This document shows, in pieces, positions 24,499 to 34,803 of a stretch of 64,000 nucleotides of DNA. Position numbers and translations under genes: made by a program. The first letter of the stretch is position 1. Each line of letters starts with the position of its first letter. The notes below the pieces were generated by a model that was not told where the DNA came from, searched no databases, and was given only the letters and a program-made list of their open reading frames with translations. Source of the DNA: Gemmatimonadota bacterium (GTDB lineage Bacteria; Gemmatimonadota; Gemmatimonadetes; Palauibacterales; Palauibacteraceae); assembly GCA_029262175.1 (NCBI GenBank), contig JAJCZV010000235.1:3014-67013 (forward strand), written 5' to 3'.

Positions 24499-25698
24499 AT
24501 GCCGTTCGTCCGCCCGCGCCGTTTCGTCCACGCATCCGCTCTCGTGGCGCTCTTTCTTGTCGTCTTCGCTCCGTGGGTCGCCGCTCAACAAGCGCCGACG
24601 CTGTCCTCCGCGGATCCTGCCGATGTGGGGATGTCCGCAGCGGTGCTCCATGGAGCACTGGGCCTGTACGAGGAAGCGGTCGAGCGCGGAGATCTCGTCG
24701 GCGCGGTCGTGCTCGTCGCGCGCCACGGGAAGATCGTTCTTCACGAAGCCGTGGGTTGGAAGGACAGGGACCGAGATCTGCCGATGGAGCGGAACACGAT
24801 GTTCCGCATGGCGTCCAACACCAAGCCCGTCGTCGCCACAGGCATCGCGCAATTGGTGGAGGCCGGTAAGCTCGATTACGACGATGTCGTTCGCGCGTAC
24901 CTGCCCGAATGGGACAACTATCGATCGGGGTTCATCACGATCGGGCAGTTGCTCTCGCATAGCAGCGGCCTTCGGATCCCCACCCTGTTCCTACAGCCGC
25001 TGGGGGATTCACCGACGCTGCAAAGCGAAGCGGCGCGCTTTGGGGCGGTCGGCGCCGTGGTACCGCCGGGCGAGAGCTACAGCTACAACAACCCGGGCTT
25101 CAACACGCTCGGCGCGCTTGTGGAAATCGGTTCCGGACAACTCCTCGAGGATCGCCTACGAGCGACGCTCTATGAGCCACTCGGCATGGTCGACAGTTAC
25201 AACCACAAAGCCGCTCATGAACTCGATGGCAAGCTCGATCGGATGGGTGCCGTCTACTACGAACGCGGCCCCGACGGACAGTGGAAGCCCGACGGCACGC
25301 CAGGCGGTCCAGCGGCTTTCCCGTTTGCGCGCGCCTCCGGCGGAATGATCTCGACAACTTCGGACTACGCGATCTTCTGTCAGATGTTCTTGAATGGTGG
25401 CGTGTACGATGGCGTCCGCTACCTCGAGCGGGAGACCGTCGAACTCATGACGTCTCCAAAGATCCACATCGCCGGCGAGGGCGAAAGCGCTTCGTACTAC
25501 GGCTATGGCTGGCGCATCGCTGACGGCACCTATGGTCACGGGGGCTCTGACGGGACCAACGCCTGGATCGATCCGGAGCGCGGAATCATTGGACTCGTTT
25601 TTACGCAGACGCCGCGCGGTGAGAACCCGCTGGATCGGTTCCGCGAACTCGTAAACCTCTCCATCGCGGATCGCGACCTGTCTACTGACGACCGATAA
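24499..25698 (+). CDS. Secreted serine hydrolase, beta-lactamase/PBP-like (class C/esterase family)
   Basis: RBS GAGGGGAG. Signal peptide, then the SxxK motif in FRMASNTKPV. The overall length fits beta-lactamase-fold esterases. Confidence 0.75.
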   Translation: MPFVRPRRFVHASALVALFLVVFAPWVAAQQAPTLSSADPADVGMSAAVLHGALGLYEEAVERGDLVGAVVLVARHGKIVLHEAVGWKDRDRDLPMERNTMFRMASNTKPVVATGIAQLVEAGKLDYDDVVRAYLPEWDNYRSGFITIGQLLSHSSGLRIPTLFLQPLGDSPTLQSEAARFGAVGAVVPPGESYSYNNPGFNTLGALVEIGSGQLLEDRLRATLYEPLGMVDSYNHKAAHELDGKLDRMGAVYYERGPDGQWKPDGTPGGPAAFPFARASGGMISTTSDYAIFCQMFLNGGVYDGVRYLERETVELMTSPKIHIAGEGESASYYGYGWRIADGTYGHGGSDGTNAWIDPERGIIGLVFTQTPRGENPLDRFRELVNLSIADRDLSTDDR

Positions 25699-31019: not shown

Positions 31020-32876
31020 CTAGCGGCGCCCGATGAGGCGGAGGAAGTCGGGATCGTTGTGGATCGCCTCGAAGTCTTGGTCCGCAGGCAGCGTTCGCGC
31101 ACGACTCGGGTTGAGCTCGAGGGCGCGTTCGAGAGCGGAAAACGCGTCGGCCTTTCGATTCAGTTCGACATAGATTTCCGCTAGAGCGACCCACGCGTTG
31201 TCATTGCCCGGCGACCGATCGCGCGCGGCGAGGGCGATCTCCAGCGCGCCATCGACGTCGCCGTCTTCCCGCTTCTGACCCGCCTCACGGATCATCTGAC
31301 CCGATCTAAAGACGTCCATGACCCGGCGCATCTCTTCCAATGGCTTTGTGTGGTCATCGACGCGGATGTCGACGGCGCGGTCACTGTAGCCGCCGCCGGC
31401 TCGCGGGCTCACGACCAGAAGGGCGCCGGACTGCATGCCGCGCGCGTCGCCGCCCGCGGCCTGTGCCGCATCAAGGGCATCCATGAGTCGCTCCACCAAC
31501 GGACCGCTGGAATTCTCGAACGAGCGCGACATGGCGGCGACGACCTCCGGCCCAGTCAGGATGTTTCCCTGCGCGCAGTAGTTCGTGCCGCAGGTGTGCC
31601 CTTTCCAGTCGTTGGCACCTTGGCCGGTGAAGGCGGCCGTTCGCCCTTGGCTATCGAGGATGGAAACCTGTCGTCGATCTCGACCCTCGTCGCTGGCCAC
31701 CATGATGTCGAGCGCTTCTTGAGGTGAGTAGCCGGCCTGCAGGAGTTCGATTCCGATCGCCCCATACATCGGGTTCGCCGCGGCCTGGTGCGCGACGATG
31801 ACGAGGCCGCCCTTGGCGTGCATCGCACGGTTGCCGGCGCCGAACGCCTTGGACTGGACGCCCATCCCGAGTTCGCCCGTGGCAGGATCGCGAGCAATGA
31901 TGGAGAACGTACCGAGATAGTTCGGATCGTCCTCGGGATCCTCGTATTGCGAGGTTGGTGACGCGATCAACTCTTCCGTCAGCCTCCGCAGACGCGCGCG
32001 CGCGGACTCGTCATAAGCCTGGTCGTTTGCTCGCGCCGGCTTCAACCCGTTGAAGAACTGCCCTCCCTCGATCTCGTTCGATGACACGAGCTGCATGACC
32101 GCATCGGCGCCCTCGGCGATGGTGGCCCGCGGTTCGACTCCCAGGCGTTGGACCATCCCGGTCGGCATGTAGGTCGCCGGATGCAGTGCGTTCACCATCA
32201 CGTCTCGACCGCGCAACTCTTCGGCGAGATCGAACGTGAACATGATTTGGGCGAGCTTACTCTGTGCGTACGCGCGACCGCCGCTGAAATTATTTGCGAT
32301 CATGACATCGTCGAAATCGATCGGGGTCTGCGCCAGCGATGACACATTTACGATCCGCGACGGCGTGCTCTCCAGCAGGAGCGGGAGCAGCATCTGGGTG
32401 AGCAACACGCTCGAAAGATAGTTGACCTGGAAACGAAACTCGTGCCCATCCTCCGACAGCAGTCGCTCATCGGGGGCGGAGCCGAACCCGGCATTGTTGA
32501 CGAGGACGTCCAACCGCTCGTAGTCACGCAGGATCGCTTCACCAAAAGCCCGGACCTGGTCGAAAGAGGCCAGGTCGGCCGCGTAGAAGCGCGCGCTGCC
32601 TTTTCCGTCCCTTTCGATCTCCTCGACGAGCGCCATCCCGCGCTCCCGGTTGCGACCGTGCACGATGACGTGCGCGCCTGAGGTAGCGATGCGGCGGGCG
32701 ACTTCGCGACCGAGCCCGCTGGTCGAACCGGTAACCAACACGACGGGTCGATCCTGCCCCGCCAGAGAGAACGCGGAGACGGCGCTCTCGCTGGCCGCGG
32801 GTAATACGGCAGCCAGGGCGAGCACAAAGAGGGCACCCCGAGAGCCGGCGCGACGGATCATTCGGTACTTGTCCAT
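31020..32876 (-). CDS. Secreted fusion protein: short-chain dehydrogenase/reductase (SDR) - DUF1028 (Ntn-hydrolase-like) - TPR-like tail
   Basis: Signal peptide. SDR motifs are VLVTGSTSGLGREVA, NNAG and the YAQSKLAQ Tyr-Lys. DUF1028 begins at GTFSIIARDPATGELGMGVQSKAFGAG. The C-terminus has helical repeats. Confidence 0.6.
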   Translation of the reverse strand: MDKYRMIRRAGSRGALFVLALAAVLPAASESAVSAFSLAGQDRPVVLVTGSTSGLGREVARRIATSGAHVIVHGRNRERGMALVEEIERDGKGSARFYAADLASFDQVRAFGEAILRDYERLDVLVNNAGFGSAPDERLLSEDGHEFRFQVNYLSSVLLTQMLLPLLLESTPSRIVNVSSLAQTPIDFDDVMIANNFSGGRAYAQSKLAQIMFTFDLAEELRGRDVMVNALHPATYMPTGMVQRLGVEPRATIAEGADAVMQLVSSNEIEGGQFFNGLKPARANDQAYDESARARLRRLTEELIASPTSQYEDPEDDPNYLGTFSIIARDPATGELGMGVQSKAFGAGNRAMHAKGGLVIVAHQAAANPMYGAIGIELLQAGYSPQEALDIMVASDEGRDRRQVSILDSQGRTAAFTGQGANDWKGHTCGTNYCAQGNILTGPEVVAAMSRSFENSSGPLVERLMDALDAAQAAGGDARGMQSGALLVVSPRAGGGYSDRAVDIRVDDHTKPLEEMRRVMDVFRSGQMIREAGQKREDGDVDGALEIALAARDRSPGNDNAWVALAEIYVELNRKADAFSALERALELNPSRARTLPADQDFEAIHNDPDFLRLIGRR

Positions 32877-32893
32877 TGGATCTTCAACCTCGT

Positions 32894-34495
32894 TTATTGC
32901 GGTCGGCGGCCACCCATGAGGGGCGGCGCAGTCGATGGTGGACTCCGGTGGCCGGTCGCCTGTTCGTACGCGTAGCCAAAGCGGAGCAACATCTCTTCGG
33001 TAAACGCTCGTCCCAAGAACTCCAGACCGACGGGCAGTCCCTGGGGAGTGAATCCTGCTGGGACGGTAAGAGCCGGGAACCCGAGAACGGGACTAAGGGC
33101 CCGGTTGTCTCCCAATCCATAGTGATCTTCCGGACTCGGGTTGGTCTCGGCGTCGAGGGCGATCAGACTCGGCGGATGATCGAATGTCGCGTAGACGACG
33201 GCGTCCAGATTCAGTTCCGCCATCGCTTTCATGAAACTCGTCCTGAGCTTCGCGCGCGAAACGAGATACTGGGCGTAACCGGCTTCATCCGTGGTTCGCC
33301 CGATGAGACCCGCCATGCCGGCGGCTCGCCACGGTGTGACGGTTCCGCTCAACAAGATCGACTTCAACGTCTTGAACGGGGCGCCCGCATGTTCTCCCAA
33401 ATAATCGTCGGTGGCCTGCTCGGTCTCGAAGGTGTTACTCGCGAGGAGCGCGTTGACCGTTTCCACTCCGGAGATGGTCACGGAATCGATGACCTCGGCG
33501 CCCAAGCGGGTCAGCTCATCGATGGCCCGATCGATCAACGCTCGAACGCTCTGATAGTCTGCGGAAGCAGGATCGGTGTTGGGGTCCATCGGATCTCGAA
33601 TCACACCGATGCGGGCGCCTTCGAGCGCCTCGGGATCCAGATTCGACGCATACGAGTTTTGAACCCTGCGAAAGGAGTAGGCCGTCACAGGGTCGTTTGG
33701 ATCGTACCCGGCGATCACGTCGAGCAAGATCGCGGCATCCGTCACGGTGCGCGTCATCGGGCCCATCGTGTCCGTCGTCGGGTTGGCCGGCATCATCCCA
33801 TAGCGACTGACCAGCGGAACCGTCGGACGAAGGCCCACCAAGTTTTGCACCGCGGCAGGCCCGCGAACCGACCCGCCGGTGTCCTCTCCAATCCCGACCA
33901 TGCCCAGATTCGCAGCCACCCCAGATCCAGTACCCCCGGAGGAGCCGCTCGGATTGCGGCGAGTATCGTACGTGTTGCGGATCACGCCGTAGGCCGACCC
34001 GACGTACCGCGAAGCGAACTCGCCCATGTTGGTCTTGGCGAGAATGATGGCTCCTGCCTCTTTCATACGGACGACGATCGTGGCGTCGCGGGTCGGAACG
34101 AAGTCTGCGAACAATGCGGACCCATAGGTCGTCGGCATATCGCGCGTCTCGACCTGATCTTTCAACAGGACCGGGACGCAGTGGAGCGGACCGACGGGAC
34201 CGCTCGCGGCAAAGGCTCGATCCAACCCATCGGCCTCTTCCAAGGCCCTCGGATTGATCGTCTGGATGGCGTTGAACGCGGGGCCGATCTTGTCGTAAGC
34301 CTCGATGCGCGCGAGGTAGCCCTCGACGAGCTGGCGGCACGTGAGATCCCCCGACGCAAACGCTTCGTGCGCCTCCCCGATCGTCGCTTCGCCCAGTTGG
34401 AAGTCCTGTGCCTCGAGCGAGACCGCAGACCAGAAAACGAAGACATAGAGGAGAGAACGGAGCGGGACGGGGAGAGACGGTTTGTGATGCATCAT
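32894..34495 (-). CDS. Secreted amidase (amidase-signature family)
   Basis: Signal peptide, then the AS sequence GGSSGGTGSGVAANLGMVGIGEDTGGSVRGPA. The catalytic Lys context is VLLKDQ. Confidence 0.8.
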   Translation of the reverse strand: MMHHKPSLPVPLRSLLYVFVFWSAVSLEAQDFQLGEATIGEAHEAFASGDLTCRQLVEGYLARIEAYDKIGPAFNAIQTINPRALEEADGLDRAFAASGPVGPLHCVPVLLKDQVETRDMPTTYGSALFADFVPTRDATIVVRMKEAGAIILAKTNMGEFASRYVGSAYGVIRNTYDTRRNPSGSSGGTGSGVAANLGMVGIGEDTGGSVRGPAAVQNLVGLRPTVPLVSRYGMMPANPTTDTMGPMTRTVTDAAILLDVIAGYDPNDPVTAYSFRRVQNSYASNLDPEALEGARIGVIRDPMDPNTDPASADYQSVRALIDRAIDELTRLGAEVIDSVTISGVETVNALLASNTFETEQATDDYLGEHAGAPFKTLKSILLSGTVTPWRAAGMAGLIGRTTDEAGYAQYLVSRAKLRTSFMKAMAELNLDAVVYATFDHPPSLIALDAETNPSPEDHYGLGDNRALSPVLGFPALTVPAGFTPQGLPVGLEFLGRAFTEEMLLRFGYAYEQATGHRSPPSTAPPLMGGRRPQ

Positions 34496-34513
34496 CGACC
34501 CCCGAGAATGAAA

Positions 34514-34541
34514 ACGGGCCCGAGCCGTGGAAGGCTCGGGC
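34514..34541 (-). terminator. Rho-independent terminator of the small histone-fold gene
   Basis: Perfect stem GGGCCCGAGCC / GGCTCGGGCCC with a GTGGAA loop (+ strand coordinates). On the minus strand a U-rich GUUUUCAUUCUC follows. Confidence 0.6.
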
Positions 34542-34558
34542 CCGAGTACAGCGGCTGC

Positions 34559-34738
34559 CTAAAAGTCGCTCGCGCGAACGGTCTTGCGGCCGTTGGCCGT
34601 GCAGCGCTTCTGAGCATCTTTGATAAGAGCGTGGACATTATTGTTGAGAGCGTCGAGTGCGTCGCCGCTCACGTTGAGGCCCGTCGACTTGAGGGCATCC
34701 TTGGTTTTGGATCCTACCAGAAGCATTTCTTTGGCCAT
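34559..34738 (-). CDS. 59-aa singlet histone-fold protein (bacterial histone HBb / DUF1931-like), absent from the ORF track
   Basis: Translation: MAKEMLLVGSKTKDALKSTGLNVSGDALDALNNNVHALIKDAQKRCTANGRKTVRASDF. The C-terminal ...A..GRKTV...D is the histone-fold alpha3/L2 signature shared with archaeal histones and Bdellovibrio Bd0055-type bacterial histones. GGAG RBS 8 nt upstream. Its own terminator follows. Confidence 0.6.
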   Translation of the reverse strand: MAKEMLLVGSKTKDALKSTGLNVSGDALDALNNNVHALIKDAQKRCTANGRKTVRASDF

Positions 34739-34803
34739 TGAGGCGCTCCAAATTGGCGTGGAACAGCATTACAGGTTCACGGAAGCTAACCCCAACCATG
34801 GGA

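Follow-up and report, generated by a model that had tools for sequence, protein, structure and literature searches.

A short Gemmatimonadota gene that probably encodes a tail-less histone of the FtF family

The stretch of DNA analysed here over its whole length (the window) comprises 64,000 nucleotides (nt) of contig JAJCZV010000235.1, assembly GCA_029262175.1, from a Gemmatimonadota bacterium, with a GC content of 63.5%. Its minus strand carries a gene for a small basic protein of 59 amino acids (aa) (6.3 kDa, isoelectric point (pI) 9.65, net charge of about +3.6 at pH 7) which, as argued below, is likely to be a histone of the face-to-face (FtF) type that, by homology, would form a homotetramer and wrap DNA. 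The surrounding genes encode an amidohydrolase, a dienelactone hydrolase, an amidase and a protein combining short-chain dehydrogenase (SDR), DUF1028 and TPR parts. The gene and the signals around it are as follows:

34559..34738, minus strand: histone coding sequence, 59 codons plus TAG, with the ATG at 34738 and the TAG stop at 34561..34559
34746..34749, minus strand: Shine-Dalgarno-like GGAG, followed by the 7-nt spacer CGCCTCA and then by the ATG (direct reading)
34505..34544, minus strand: intrinsic-terminator-like element, the sole match of a terminator scan in the region
34759..34790, minus strand: candidate promoter or regulatory region, with GTTAGCTTC at 34790..34782, an interval of 17 nt and GTTCCA at 34764..34759

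When an open reading frame (ORF) of this size is considered, a chance origin has to be addressed: the frame is short, and spurious ORFs are common in high-GC genomes. The locus itself provides an example, a plus-strand ORF of 621 aa (32876-34741) that runs antisense to the entire amidase and histone genes, a typical high-GC artefact that could mislead any annotation by ORF length. The peptide reported for positions 34559-34738 in the first-pass annotation is the exact translation of the minus-strand ATG ORF. Its absence from the ORF track, also reported there, is true of the first-stage track, but the identical protein is on record in NCBI and in two Logan assemblies, one of which is a 110-kb contig that shares the neighbour genes of the window; likewise, the gene was called unannotated, although orthologues carry names, either 'hypothetical protein' (NCBI) or 'histone H3/H4' (JGI). 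A search of a collection of 5.8 billion proteins yielded 198 homologues at E<=1e-3. Five of the orthologues come from metagenome-assembled genomes (MAGs) of Gemmatimonadota and share 85-92% amino-acid identity with the window protein; in pairwise comparisons of their genes with the window gene, the ratio of nonsynonymous to synonymous substitutions (dN/dS) is 0.04-0.15 at a near-saturated dS of 0.4-2.6. The start position (ATG or GTG), a ribosome-binding site (RBS) of the GGAG type and a GC-rich hairpin 3' of the stop codon are retained in all six loci, and the fold is predicted with confidence (see below). Because of this conservation pattern, the chance-ORF reading is refuted and its probability is practically nil: the ORF is a real gene under strong purifying selection.

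A monomer model of the protein was built with AlphaFold2 from a family alignment of 55 sequences. It has a mean predicted local distance difference test score (pLDDT) of 88.3 and consists of alpha1 at residues 9-17, alpha2 at residues 25-48 (24 residues) and a one-turn alpha3 at residues 56-58. In a Foldseek comparison with the PDB, the nine best matches were exclusively prokaryotic alpha3-truncated histones, with template modelling (TM) scores of 0.82-0.92. The closest was HLp, the FtF histone of Leptospira perolatii (9qt0/9qt1), with TM 0.86-0.92, a root-mean-square deviation of 1.0-1.1 A and 52-53% identity; HTkC of Thermococcus kodakarensis gave TM 0.83-0.86 at 42-43% identity, and HBb (Bd0055) of Bdellovibrio bacteriovorus gave TM 0.82-0.87 at 37-39% identity, whereas nucleosomal histones reached query-normalised TM values of only ~0.5-0.7. 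The singlet histone fold that had been proposed on first reading is thus borne out, the predicted structure being a helix-loop-helix-loop-helix and its PDB matches being histones. By the definition of Schwab et al. (2024, PMC11390915), alpha3 histones possess an alpha3 of 3-4 residues and an alpha2 shorter than the nucleosomal one; the window protein, as modelled, falls within this class of alpha3-truncated histones.

Sequence searches of the PDB gave a similar picture. With the single window sequence, phmmer found HLp at 2.1e-12, HTkC at 1.5e-5 and HBb at 1.2e-4; with the family profile, the E-values were 7.8e-18 for HLp, 1.3e-10 for HBb and 2.1e-9 for HTkC, so that HTkC fell slightly behind HBb, and the remoter matches included HmvA and the Asgard histone HHoB (~1e-5) and NF-YB (~7e-3). 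Matches to designed 'Pizza' beta-propellers (E 1e-9 to 1e-6) were discarded as an artefact of six summed weak repeats: they involve a 25-residue stretch at 5 bits each, none of which passes singly. HLp (PDB 9QT0/9QT1/9QT2; Hu et al. 2025, PMC12701072) is thus the best match of the window protein both in sequence and in structure. The helices of the two proteins are of equal length, alpha3 makes one turn in both, and both end in ...R-x-(T/S)-D-F. In HLp, the chain is longer by ~8 residues, T56 stands in place of K52, which in the window protein belongs to the canonical RKT motif, and T50 stands in place of C46; the hosts differ as well, Leptospira being a member of the Spirochaetota.

Which kind of alpha3-truncated histone is it? 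According to Schwab et al. (2024, PMC11390915), FtF histones form toroidal tetramers and share conserved R48, N52, R54, T56 and D61 (numbering of the FtF hidden Markov model), R48 and N52 being absent from the logo of the 'bacterial dimer' histones. In the window protein, R45, N49, R51, T53 and D58 reproduce the FtF signature with identical spacing, and K13 corresponds to FtF K16. As counted over 184 distinct family members, K13 and R51 are conserved in 100%, N49, T53 and D58 in 99%, and position 45 is Arg in 88% and Lys in 12%; the Asp-Phe C-terminal end common to HLp and the window protein is found in 122 of the 184. Both the signature residues and the proximity to HLp in sequence and structure place the protein, so far as such comparisons can, within the FtF family.

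The first-pass annotation had assigned the protein to the HBb/Bd0055 type instead, which would make it an obligate dimer, bending DNA or attaching to it end-on rather than wrapping it as a tetramer. The resemblance is real: HBb (PDB 8FVX, 8CMP, 9EZZ) is a significant relative by every search described above, has a similar length, shares the truncated alpha3, the conserved alpha1 lysines and the GRKT-x4-D motif, and lacks a long N-terminal tail, as does the window protein. However, HLp is far closer, at 2e-12 and 52% identity, which is a difference of 8 orders of magnitude in E-value. The alignment, moreover, places Ser and Asp of HBb, a strictly dimeric protein that bends DNA, in the columns of R45 (Arg or Lys in all 184 members) and N49, and the window chain shares with HLp the terminal Asp-Phe, which serves there as the docking point of the partner Arg. 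Because the tetramerization residues R45 and N49 are kept, we assign the protein to the FtF family and not to the HBb dimers, and regard a dimer of the HBb type as unlikely.

The same annotation suggested a likeness to DUF1931 and a check against PF09123. The check gave no match of the window protein to this Pfam family at E<=10, and 'DUF1931', where it is attached to PDB 9QT0 and to relatives on haloarchaeal plasmids, is a database name that does not reflect a Pfam match of the window protein. The structures named DUF1931 in the literature, such as Aq_328 of Aquifex (1R4V) and its Thermus counterpart (1WWI), do belong to the histone-fold superfamily; they are pseudodimers devoid of the DNA-binding residues, unlike the window singlet, which possesses them. 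A histone-fold protein with a function outside chromatin, for instance a scaffold like these pseudodimers, could nevertheless be envisaged, given that 17 of the 55 family members match PF09123 weakly (best E = 0.007), that NCBI labels relatives 'DUF1931 domain-containing protein' and that the gene lies among metabolic hydrolases. Yet a singlet of 59 aa without a PF09123 match at E<=10 does not qualify as a DUF1931 pseudodimer; furthermore, it retains the RxTxxxxD motif and the residues by which HLp contacts DNA, and its pI is 9.65. We consider a role apart from chromatin highly improbable.

If the protein is an FtF histone, its mode of action can be envisaged from its characterized relatives. 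Two chains would combine into a head-to-tail histone-fold dimer, and two dimers, meeting at the C-terminal end of alpha2, loop 2 and the one-turn alpha3, would close into a rigid toroidal homotetramer. In this tetramer, Arg45 would reach Phe59, or its carboxylate, on the opposing dimer, with a contribution from Asn49, and an 'RD clamp' between Arg51 and Asp58 would fix loop 2. These roles are transferred from HLp, where R49, N53 and R55 bond with F63, T61 and R55 of the opposing dimer and the RD clamp is R55-D62 (PMC12701072); with an offset of 4 in numbering, R49, N53, R55, D62 and F63 of HLp are R45, N49, R51, D58 and F59 of the window protein, the Phe being the last residue in both. In HTkC, R45 is salt-bridged to the carboxylate at the C-terminus of the opposing dimer, and the substitution R45A converts the tetramer into a dimer, as judged by SEC-MALS (size-exclusion chromatography plus multi-angle light scattering; bioRxiv 10.64898/2025.12.06.692711). 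HTkC (PDB 9F2C) resembles the window protein in belonging to the toroidal-tetramer family, in having this Arg in the same column, and in its GRKT and alpha1 lysines; it differs in its lower identity (42%), in the Glu in the column of N49 and in its archaeal host, where it occurs alongside nucleosomal histones.

The basic rim of the putative ring (Ser10, Lys11, Lys13, Lys17, Lys52, Thr53) would contact DNA phosphates irrespective of sequence. The DNA contacts of HLp (A13, S14, K15, K17, K21, T27, G29, T56 and T57) map to G9, S10, K11, K13, K17, V23, G25, K52 and T53, six of the nine being identical, and K11, K13, K52 and T53 show little or no variation among the 184 family members. From the six shared contact residues and the pI of 9.65 we infer non-specific binding to DNA. 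Each tetramer would be wrapped by ~60 bp of DNA, whereby the nucleoid would be compacted and organized. For HLp, non-specific wrapping of ~60 bp is documented by SEC-MALS, crystal structures, molecular dynamics simulations, micrococcal nuclease digestion, tethered particle motion and reorganization of the nucleoid in E. coli; HTkC behaves similarly, and the HLp homologue of L. interrogans is essential and abundant. Tetramerization, DNA wrapping, abundance and a part as a main nucleoid protein are properties that the window protein may share with its relatives by analogy.

One residue of the presumed interface region deserves separate mention. Cys46 (codon 34601-34603, minus strand) follows Arg45 directly and is found in 162 of the 184 family members (88%); the column holds Thr in HLp and Ala in HBb and HTkC. 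A conserved Cys near the dimer-dimer interface is reminiscent of Cys110 of histone H3. A redox role for Cys46 would be pure speculation.

Several observations weigh against the identification of the protein as a tetrameric FtF histone. The score against the Pfam family CBFD_NFYB_HMF (PF00808) is sub-threshold (E = 0.037, 14.8 bits against a cut-off of 21.4), and so is that against the NCBIfam model archaea_histone (NF043032; E = 0.0012, 19.2 bits against a cut-off of 50). There is no N-terminal tail; according to Schwab et al. (2024, PMC11390915), a basic tail is usual in bacterial FtF histones and always present in those of Leptospirales, and HLp has one. At the interface, S52 of HLp is replaced by A48 and T61 by S57, while L47 of the HLp dimer core becomes Q43 and V16 becomes T12, so that the details of the interface may differ from those of HLp. 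The tetramer, moreover, is deduced from conserved residues alone. At the locus, hydrolase genes stand in place of chromatin-related neighbours such as SMC, unlike in Leptospira with its SMC/MAP neighbourhood, and a scan for sigma-70 promoters between 34300 and 35000 gave no match.

The low scores against the family models reflect the models themselves, since two verified FtF histones, HLp and HTkC, likewise stay below threshold: HLp has no match to any family of the Pfam histone clan and HTkC reaches E = 0.055, whereas HBb passes CBFD_NFYB_HMF. Within the family of the window protein, 43 of 55 members match CBFD_NFYB_HMF below threshold. An archaeal nucleosomal histone of the HMf type was also considered and rejected: scores against PF00808 and NF043032 lie below the cut-offs, alpha3 is truncated, and TM is ~0.6 to HPhA and HHoB. 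Nucleosomal histones such as HMfB and HHoB share with the window protein the histone fold, the RD clamp and the RxTxxxxD motif, but their alpha2 is longer and their alpha3 has 10 residues; they assemble into open hypernucleosomes and superimpose with TM of only 0.5-0.6.

The GGAG taken for an RBS on first reading is indeed present, 7 nt 5' of the ATG, and GGAG, GGGAGG or GGGGGG lies upstream, near the start codon, in all five orthologous loci. Downstream, a hairpin on the histone-gene strand begins 14 nt past the TAG stop (34544..34515, minus strand; CGGGCCCGAGCC-TTCCAC-GGCTCGGGCCCG), with a stem of 12 bp, 11 of them G-C, and a 6-nt loop; TTTTCATTCT at 34514..34505 follows directly 3' of the stem. 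The 61-nt 3' region folds at -32.2 kcal/mol, with z = -4.05 relative to shuffled sequences. The "perfect 11-bp-stem terminator" of the first-pass annotation therefore exists as a hairpin, but its stem has 12 pairs rather than 11 and its U-tract is short, four U and then CAUUCU. All five orthologues carry a GC-rich inverted repeat past the stop, as recognized by eye from the sequences alone.

The amidase gene (32894..34495, minus strand) starts ~10 nt beyond the U-tract; since the terminator thus abuts the amidase start, transcription of the amidase must depend either on read-through of the hairpin or on a promoter that lies within the histone gene. The histone transcript would end at the hairpin, which would also divide the histone gene from the amidase gene, and the hairpin may set a high ratio of histone to amidase or may stabilize the histone mRNA. 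Transcription of the histone gene probably starts at a promoter of its own. Such a promoter is needed at four of the six orthologous loci, where the upstream gene is divergent; in the window, the dienelactone-hydrolase gene upstream runs in the same direction as the histone gene and is separated from it by a 65-bp gap. The claim that the gene is independently expressed is thus supported indirectly by the four divergent loci, although the sigma-70 scan recognized no promoter.

A possible promoter or operator is the pair of elements GTTAGCTTC and GTTCCA, the latter ~20 nt before the histone ATG. The string TTAGCTTC occurs exactly in the window and in two orthologous loci (L004, L005) and with one mismatch in a third (L006), while the upstream genes differ among the loci; in all four, GT(A/T)C(C/A)(A/C) follows 15-17 nt past it. 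GTTAGCTTC was rejected as a motif of general occurrence: in the 64 kb of the window there is a single exact copy of this 9-mer, and copies with one mismatch appear at chance frequency. It is therefore graded as a candidate gene-specific element, which may be a promoter or an operator unlike the sigma-70 consensus.

The neighbourhood of the gene recurs in Gemmatimonadota MAGs, the neighbour proteins being 74-85% identical to the products of genes that adjoin the histone gene there, or lie within a few kb of it; these matches assign the host to a Gemmatimonadota lineage. Neither an HU homologue nor a second histone gene was found within the 64-kb window, and tRNA genes and Rfam families at the gathering threshold were absent from the whole of it. 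The 618-aa protein encoded at 31020-32876 (minus strand) combines, by Pfam, a short-chain dehydrogenase with DUF1028 and TPR repeats; an identical gene is present in locus L001, and the fusion recurs at 77% identity in two Gemmatimonadota MAG loci.

The distribution of the family was surveyed with a subfamily-specific pattern in one genome per species (185,579 species), which returned 123 loci, the best 80 of which were examined. Five of these 80 are the Gemmatimonadota loci with 85-92% identity; the remainder belong to Bacteriovoracia, Halobacteriovorax, Oligoflexia and Bdellovibrionota (62-82% identity) and to Omnitrophota (65-72%), and all of the non-Gemmatimonadota loci are low in GC (median 0.38, maximum 0.56). 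In a neighbour-joining tree of 59 columns, which is of low resolution, the Gemmatimonadota copies form a single clade that stands beside tail-less Bacteriovoracia paralogues ending in DF. Judging by these 80 loci, the nearest relatives outside Gemmatimonadota are the tail-less FtF paralogues of low-GC Bacteriovoracia. They resemble the window protein in identity (62-82%), in length class and in the ending ...NGRKTV(R/K)xxDF, and differ in their hosts, such as Halobacteriovorax and Bacteriovoracaceae MAGs, which are low-GC predators with a locus GC of 0.28-0.43.

Many Bacteriovoracia MAGs carry two classes of paralogues (L007/L074, L008/L049, L011/L054, L024/L058, L028/L076). The class nearest to the window protein is tail-less, ~60 aa long and ends in …DF. 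In the other class, the first 5-40 residues form a Lys-rich tail and the C-terminus continues as far as …YDILA. Omnitrophota have copies of this tailed class, and the Gemmatimonadota loci showed the tail-less class only.

How, then, did Gemmatimonadota come to share this gene with so distant a group? The GC content at third codon positions (GC3) is 0.70 in the histone gene, 0.74-0.79 in its neighbours, 0.78-0.86 in the other Gemmatimonadota and 0.21-0.25 in Bacteriovoracia. Because the GC3 of the histone gene follows that of the host, a recent horizontal transfer was rejected. A single old acquisition is suggested by three features: the Gemmatimonadota copies form one clade, their codon usage is ameliorated and their neighbourhood is conserved. 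The data fit one old transfer, in either direction, with subsequent amelioration and vertical descent in a small clade.

It could be asked whether the gene is, instead, cargo of a mobile element, that is, a phage-type histone on a prophage or island that serves the element and not the chromosome. Relatives are, indeed, encoded by six viral contigs of IMG/VR (L083-L088), the best of them 68% identical, FtF histones occur on haloarchaeal plasmids, and the phyletic distribution is patchy. Against this stand the GC3 close to that of the host neighbours, the same hydrolase surroundings in several Gemmatimonadota MAGs and the single clade of the Gemmatimonadota copies; in addition, the Pfam matches within 6 kb include no phage-like genes, and the GenBank phage collection gave no match. 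It is, therefore, very unlikely that the window gene serves a mobile element.

The best of the viral relatives, at 5001-5171 of L083 (IMGVR_UViG_3300037755_000497, 108,875 bp), is 68% identical to the window protein, reads …GSKTKEALKSTGLNVS…NNNRKTVKATDF and lies in a 34%-GC locus, where it adjoins, among ORFans, genes for a ResIII helicase and a Toprim-DnaB_C primase-helicase, a phage-like context. The viral relatives in L085-L087 have long N-terminal tails rich in Lys and Arg. Such viral contigs are a possible vehicle for the patchy distribution of the family among phyla.

An extended scenario can be envisaged, in which a small, high-GC clade of Gemmatimonadota acquired the FtF gene long ago from low-GC Bacteriovoracia-like bacteria or their phages and its product is now a major, possibly the principal, nucleoid-organizing protein of that clade. 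We regard this combination as doubtful. If true, it would be the first such case in a presumably free-living, non-predatory lineage, and would involve a bacterial FtF variant that lacks a tail and has a near-invariant Cys beside the tetramerization Arg.

What is new here is a host lineage for a rare but known family; the protein is of no novel type. Public databases already contain orthologues, some of them labelled histone, and the family, the fold and the probable mechanism have been described previously. Gemmatimonadota are not mentioned in the main texts of the histone censuses searched or in the searched supplementary files of Schwab et al., although a supplementary figure could still show the phylum, and the literature search found no substantive link of Gemmatimonadota with bacterial histones. 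The importance attached to a new histone-bearing lineage in the first-pass annotation is thus justified insofar as FtF histones gain a host phylum that those main texts do not name for them, but the interest was rated somewhat high: the current picture of bacterial histones is unchanged by this locus. The gene could, however, provide a clean case for the movement of a chromatin protein between bacterial phyla and its domestication, and a minimal, tail-less FtF histone of 59 aa would be a convenient subject for testing whether the Arg/Asn signature predicts a tetramer and DNA wrapping outside Leptospira.

Two observations concern the records of the relatives. An entry named 'MAG: Sulfitobacter sp.' carries both Bacteriovoracia-type paralogues (L028 and L076) on Mb-size contigs (JBLHVN010000002.1, JBLHVN010000001.1), and the GC of these histone loci is 0.37-0.39. 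The GC content of Sulfitobacter is ~60%, and the record is probably mislabelled. Among plasmids, 53 entries of PLSDB, with haloarchaeal ones among those listed, encode FtF-type relatives of ~48-50% identity, one example being NC_013966.1 of Haloferax volcanii (24695-24850); these matches are consistent with the plasmid-borne FtF histones of Halobacteria noted by Schwab et al. (PMC11390915). The NCBI names of the plasmid relatives vary between 'DUF1931 domain-containing protein', 'DNA-binding protein' and 'hypothetical protein', which shows that the family is annotated inconsistently.

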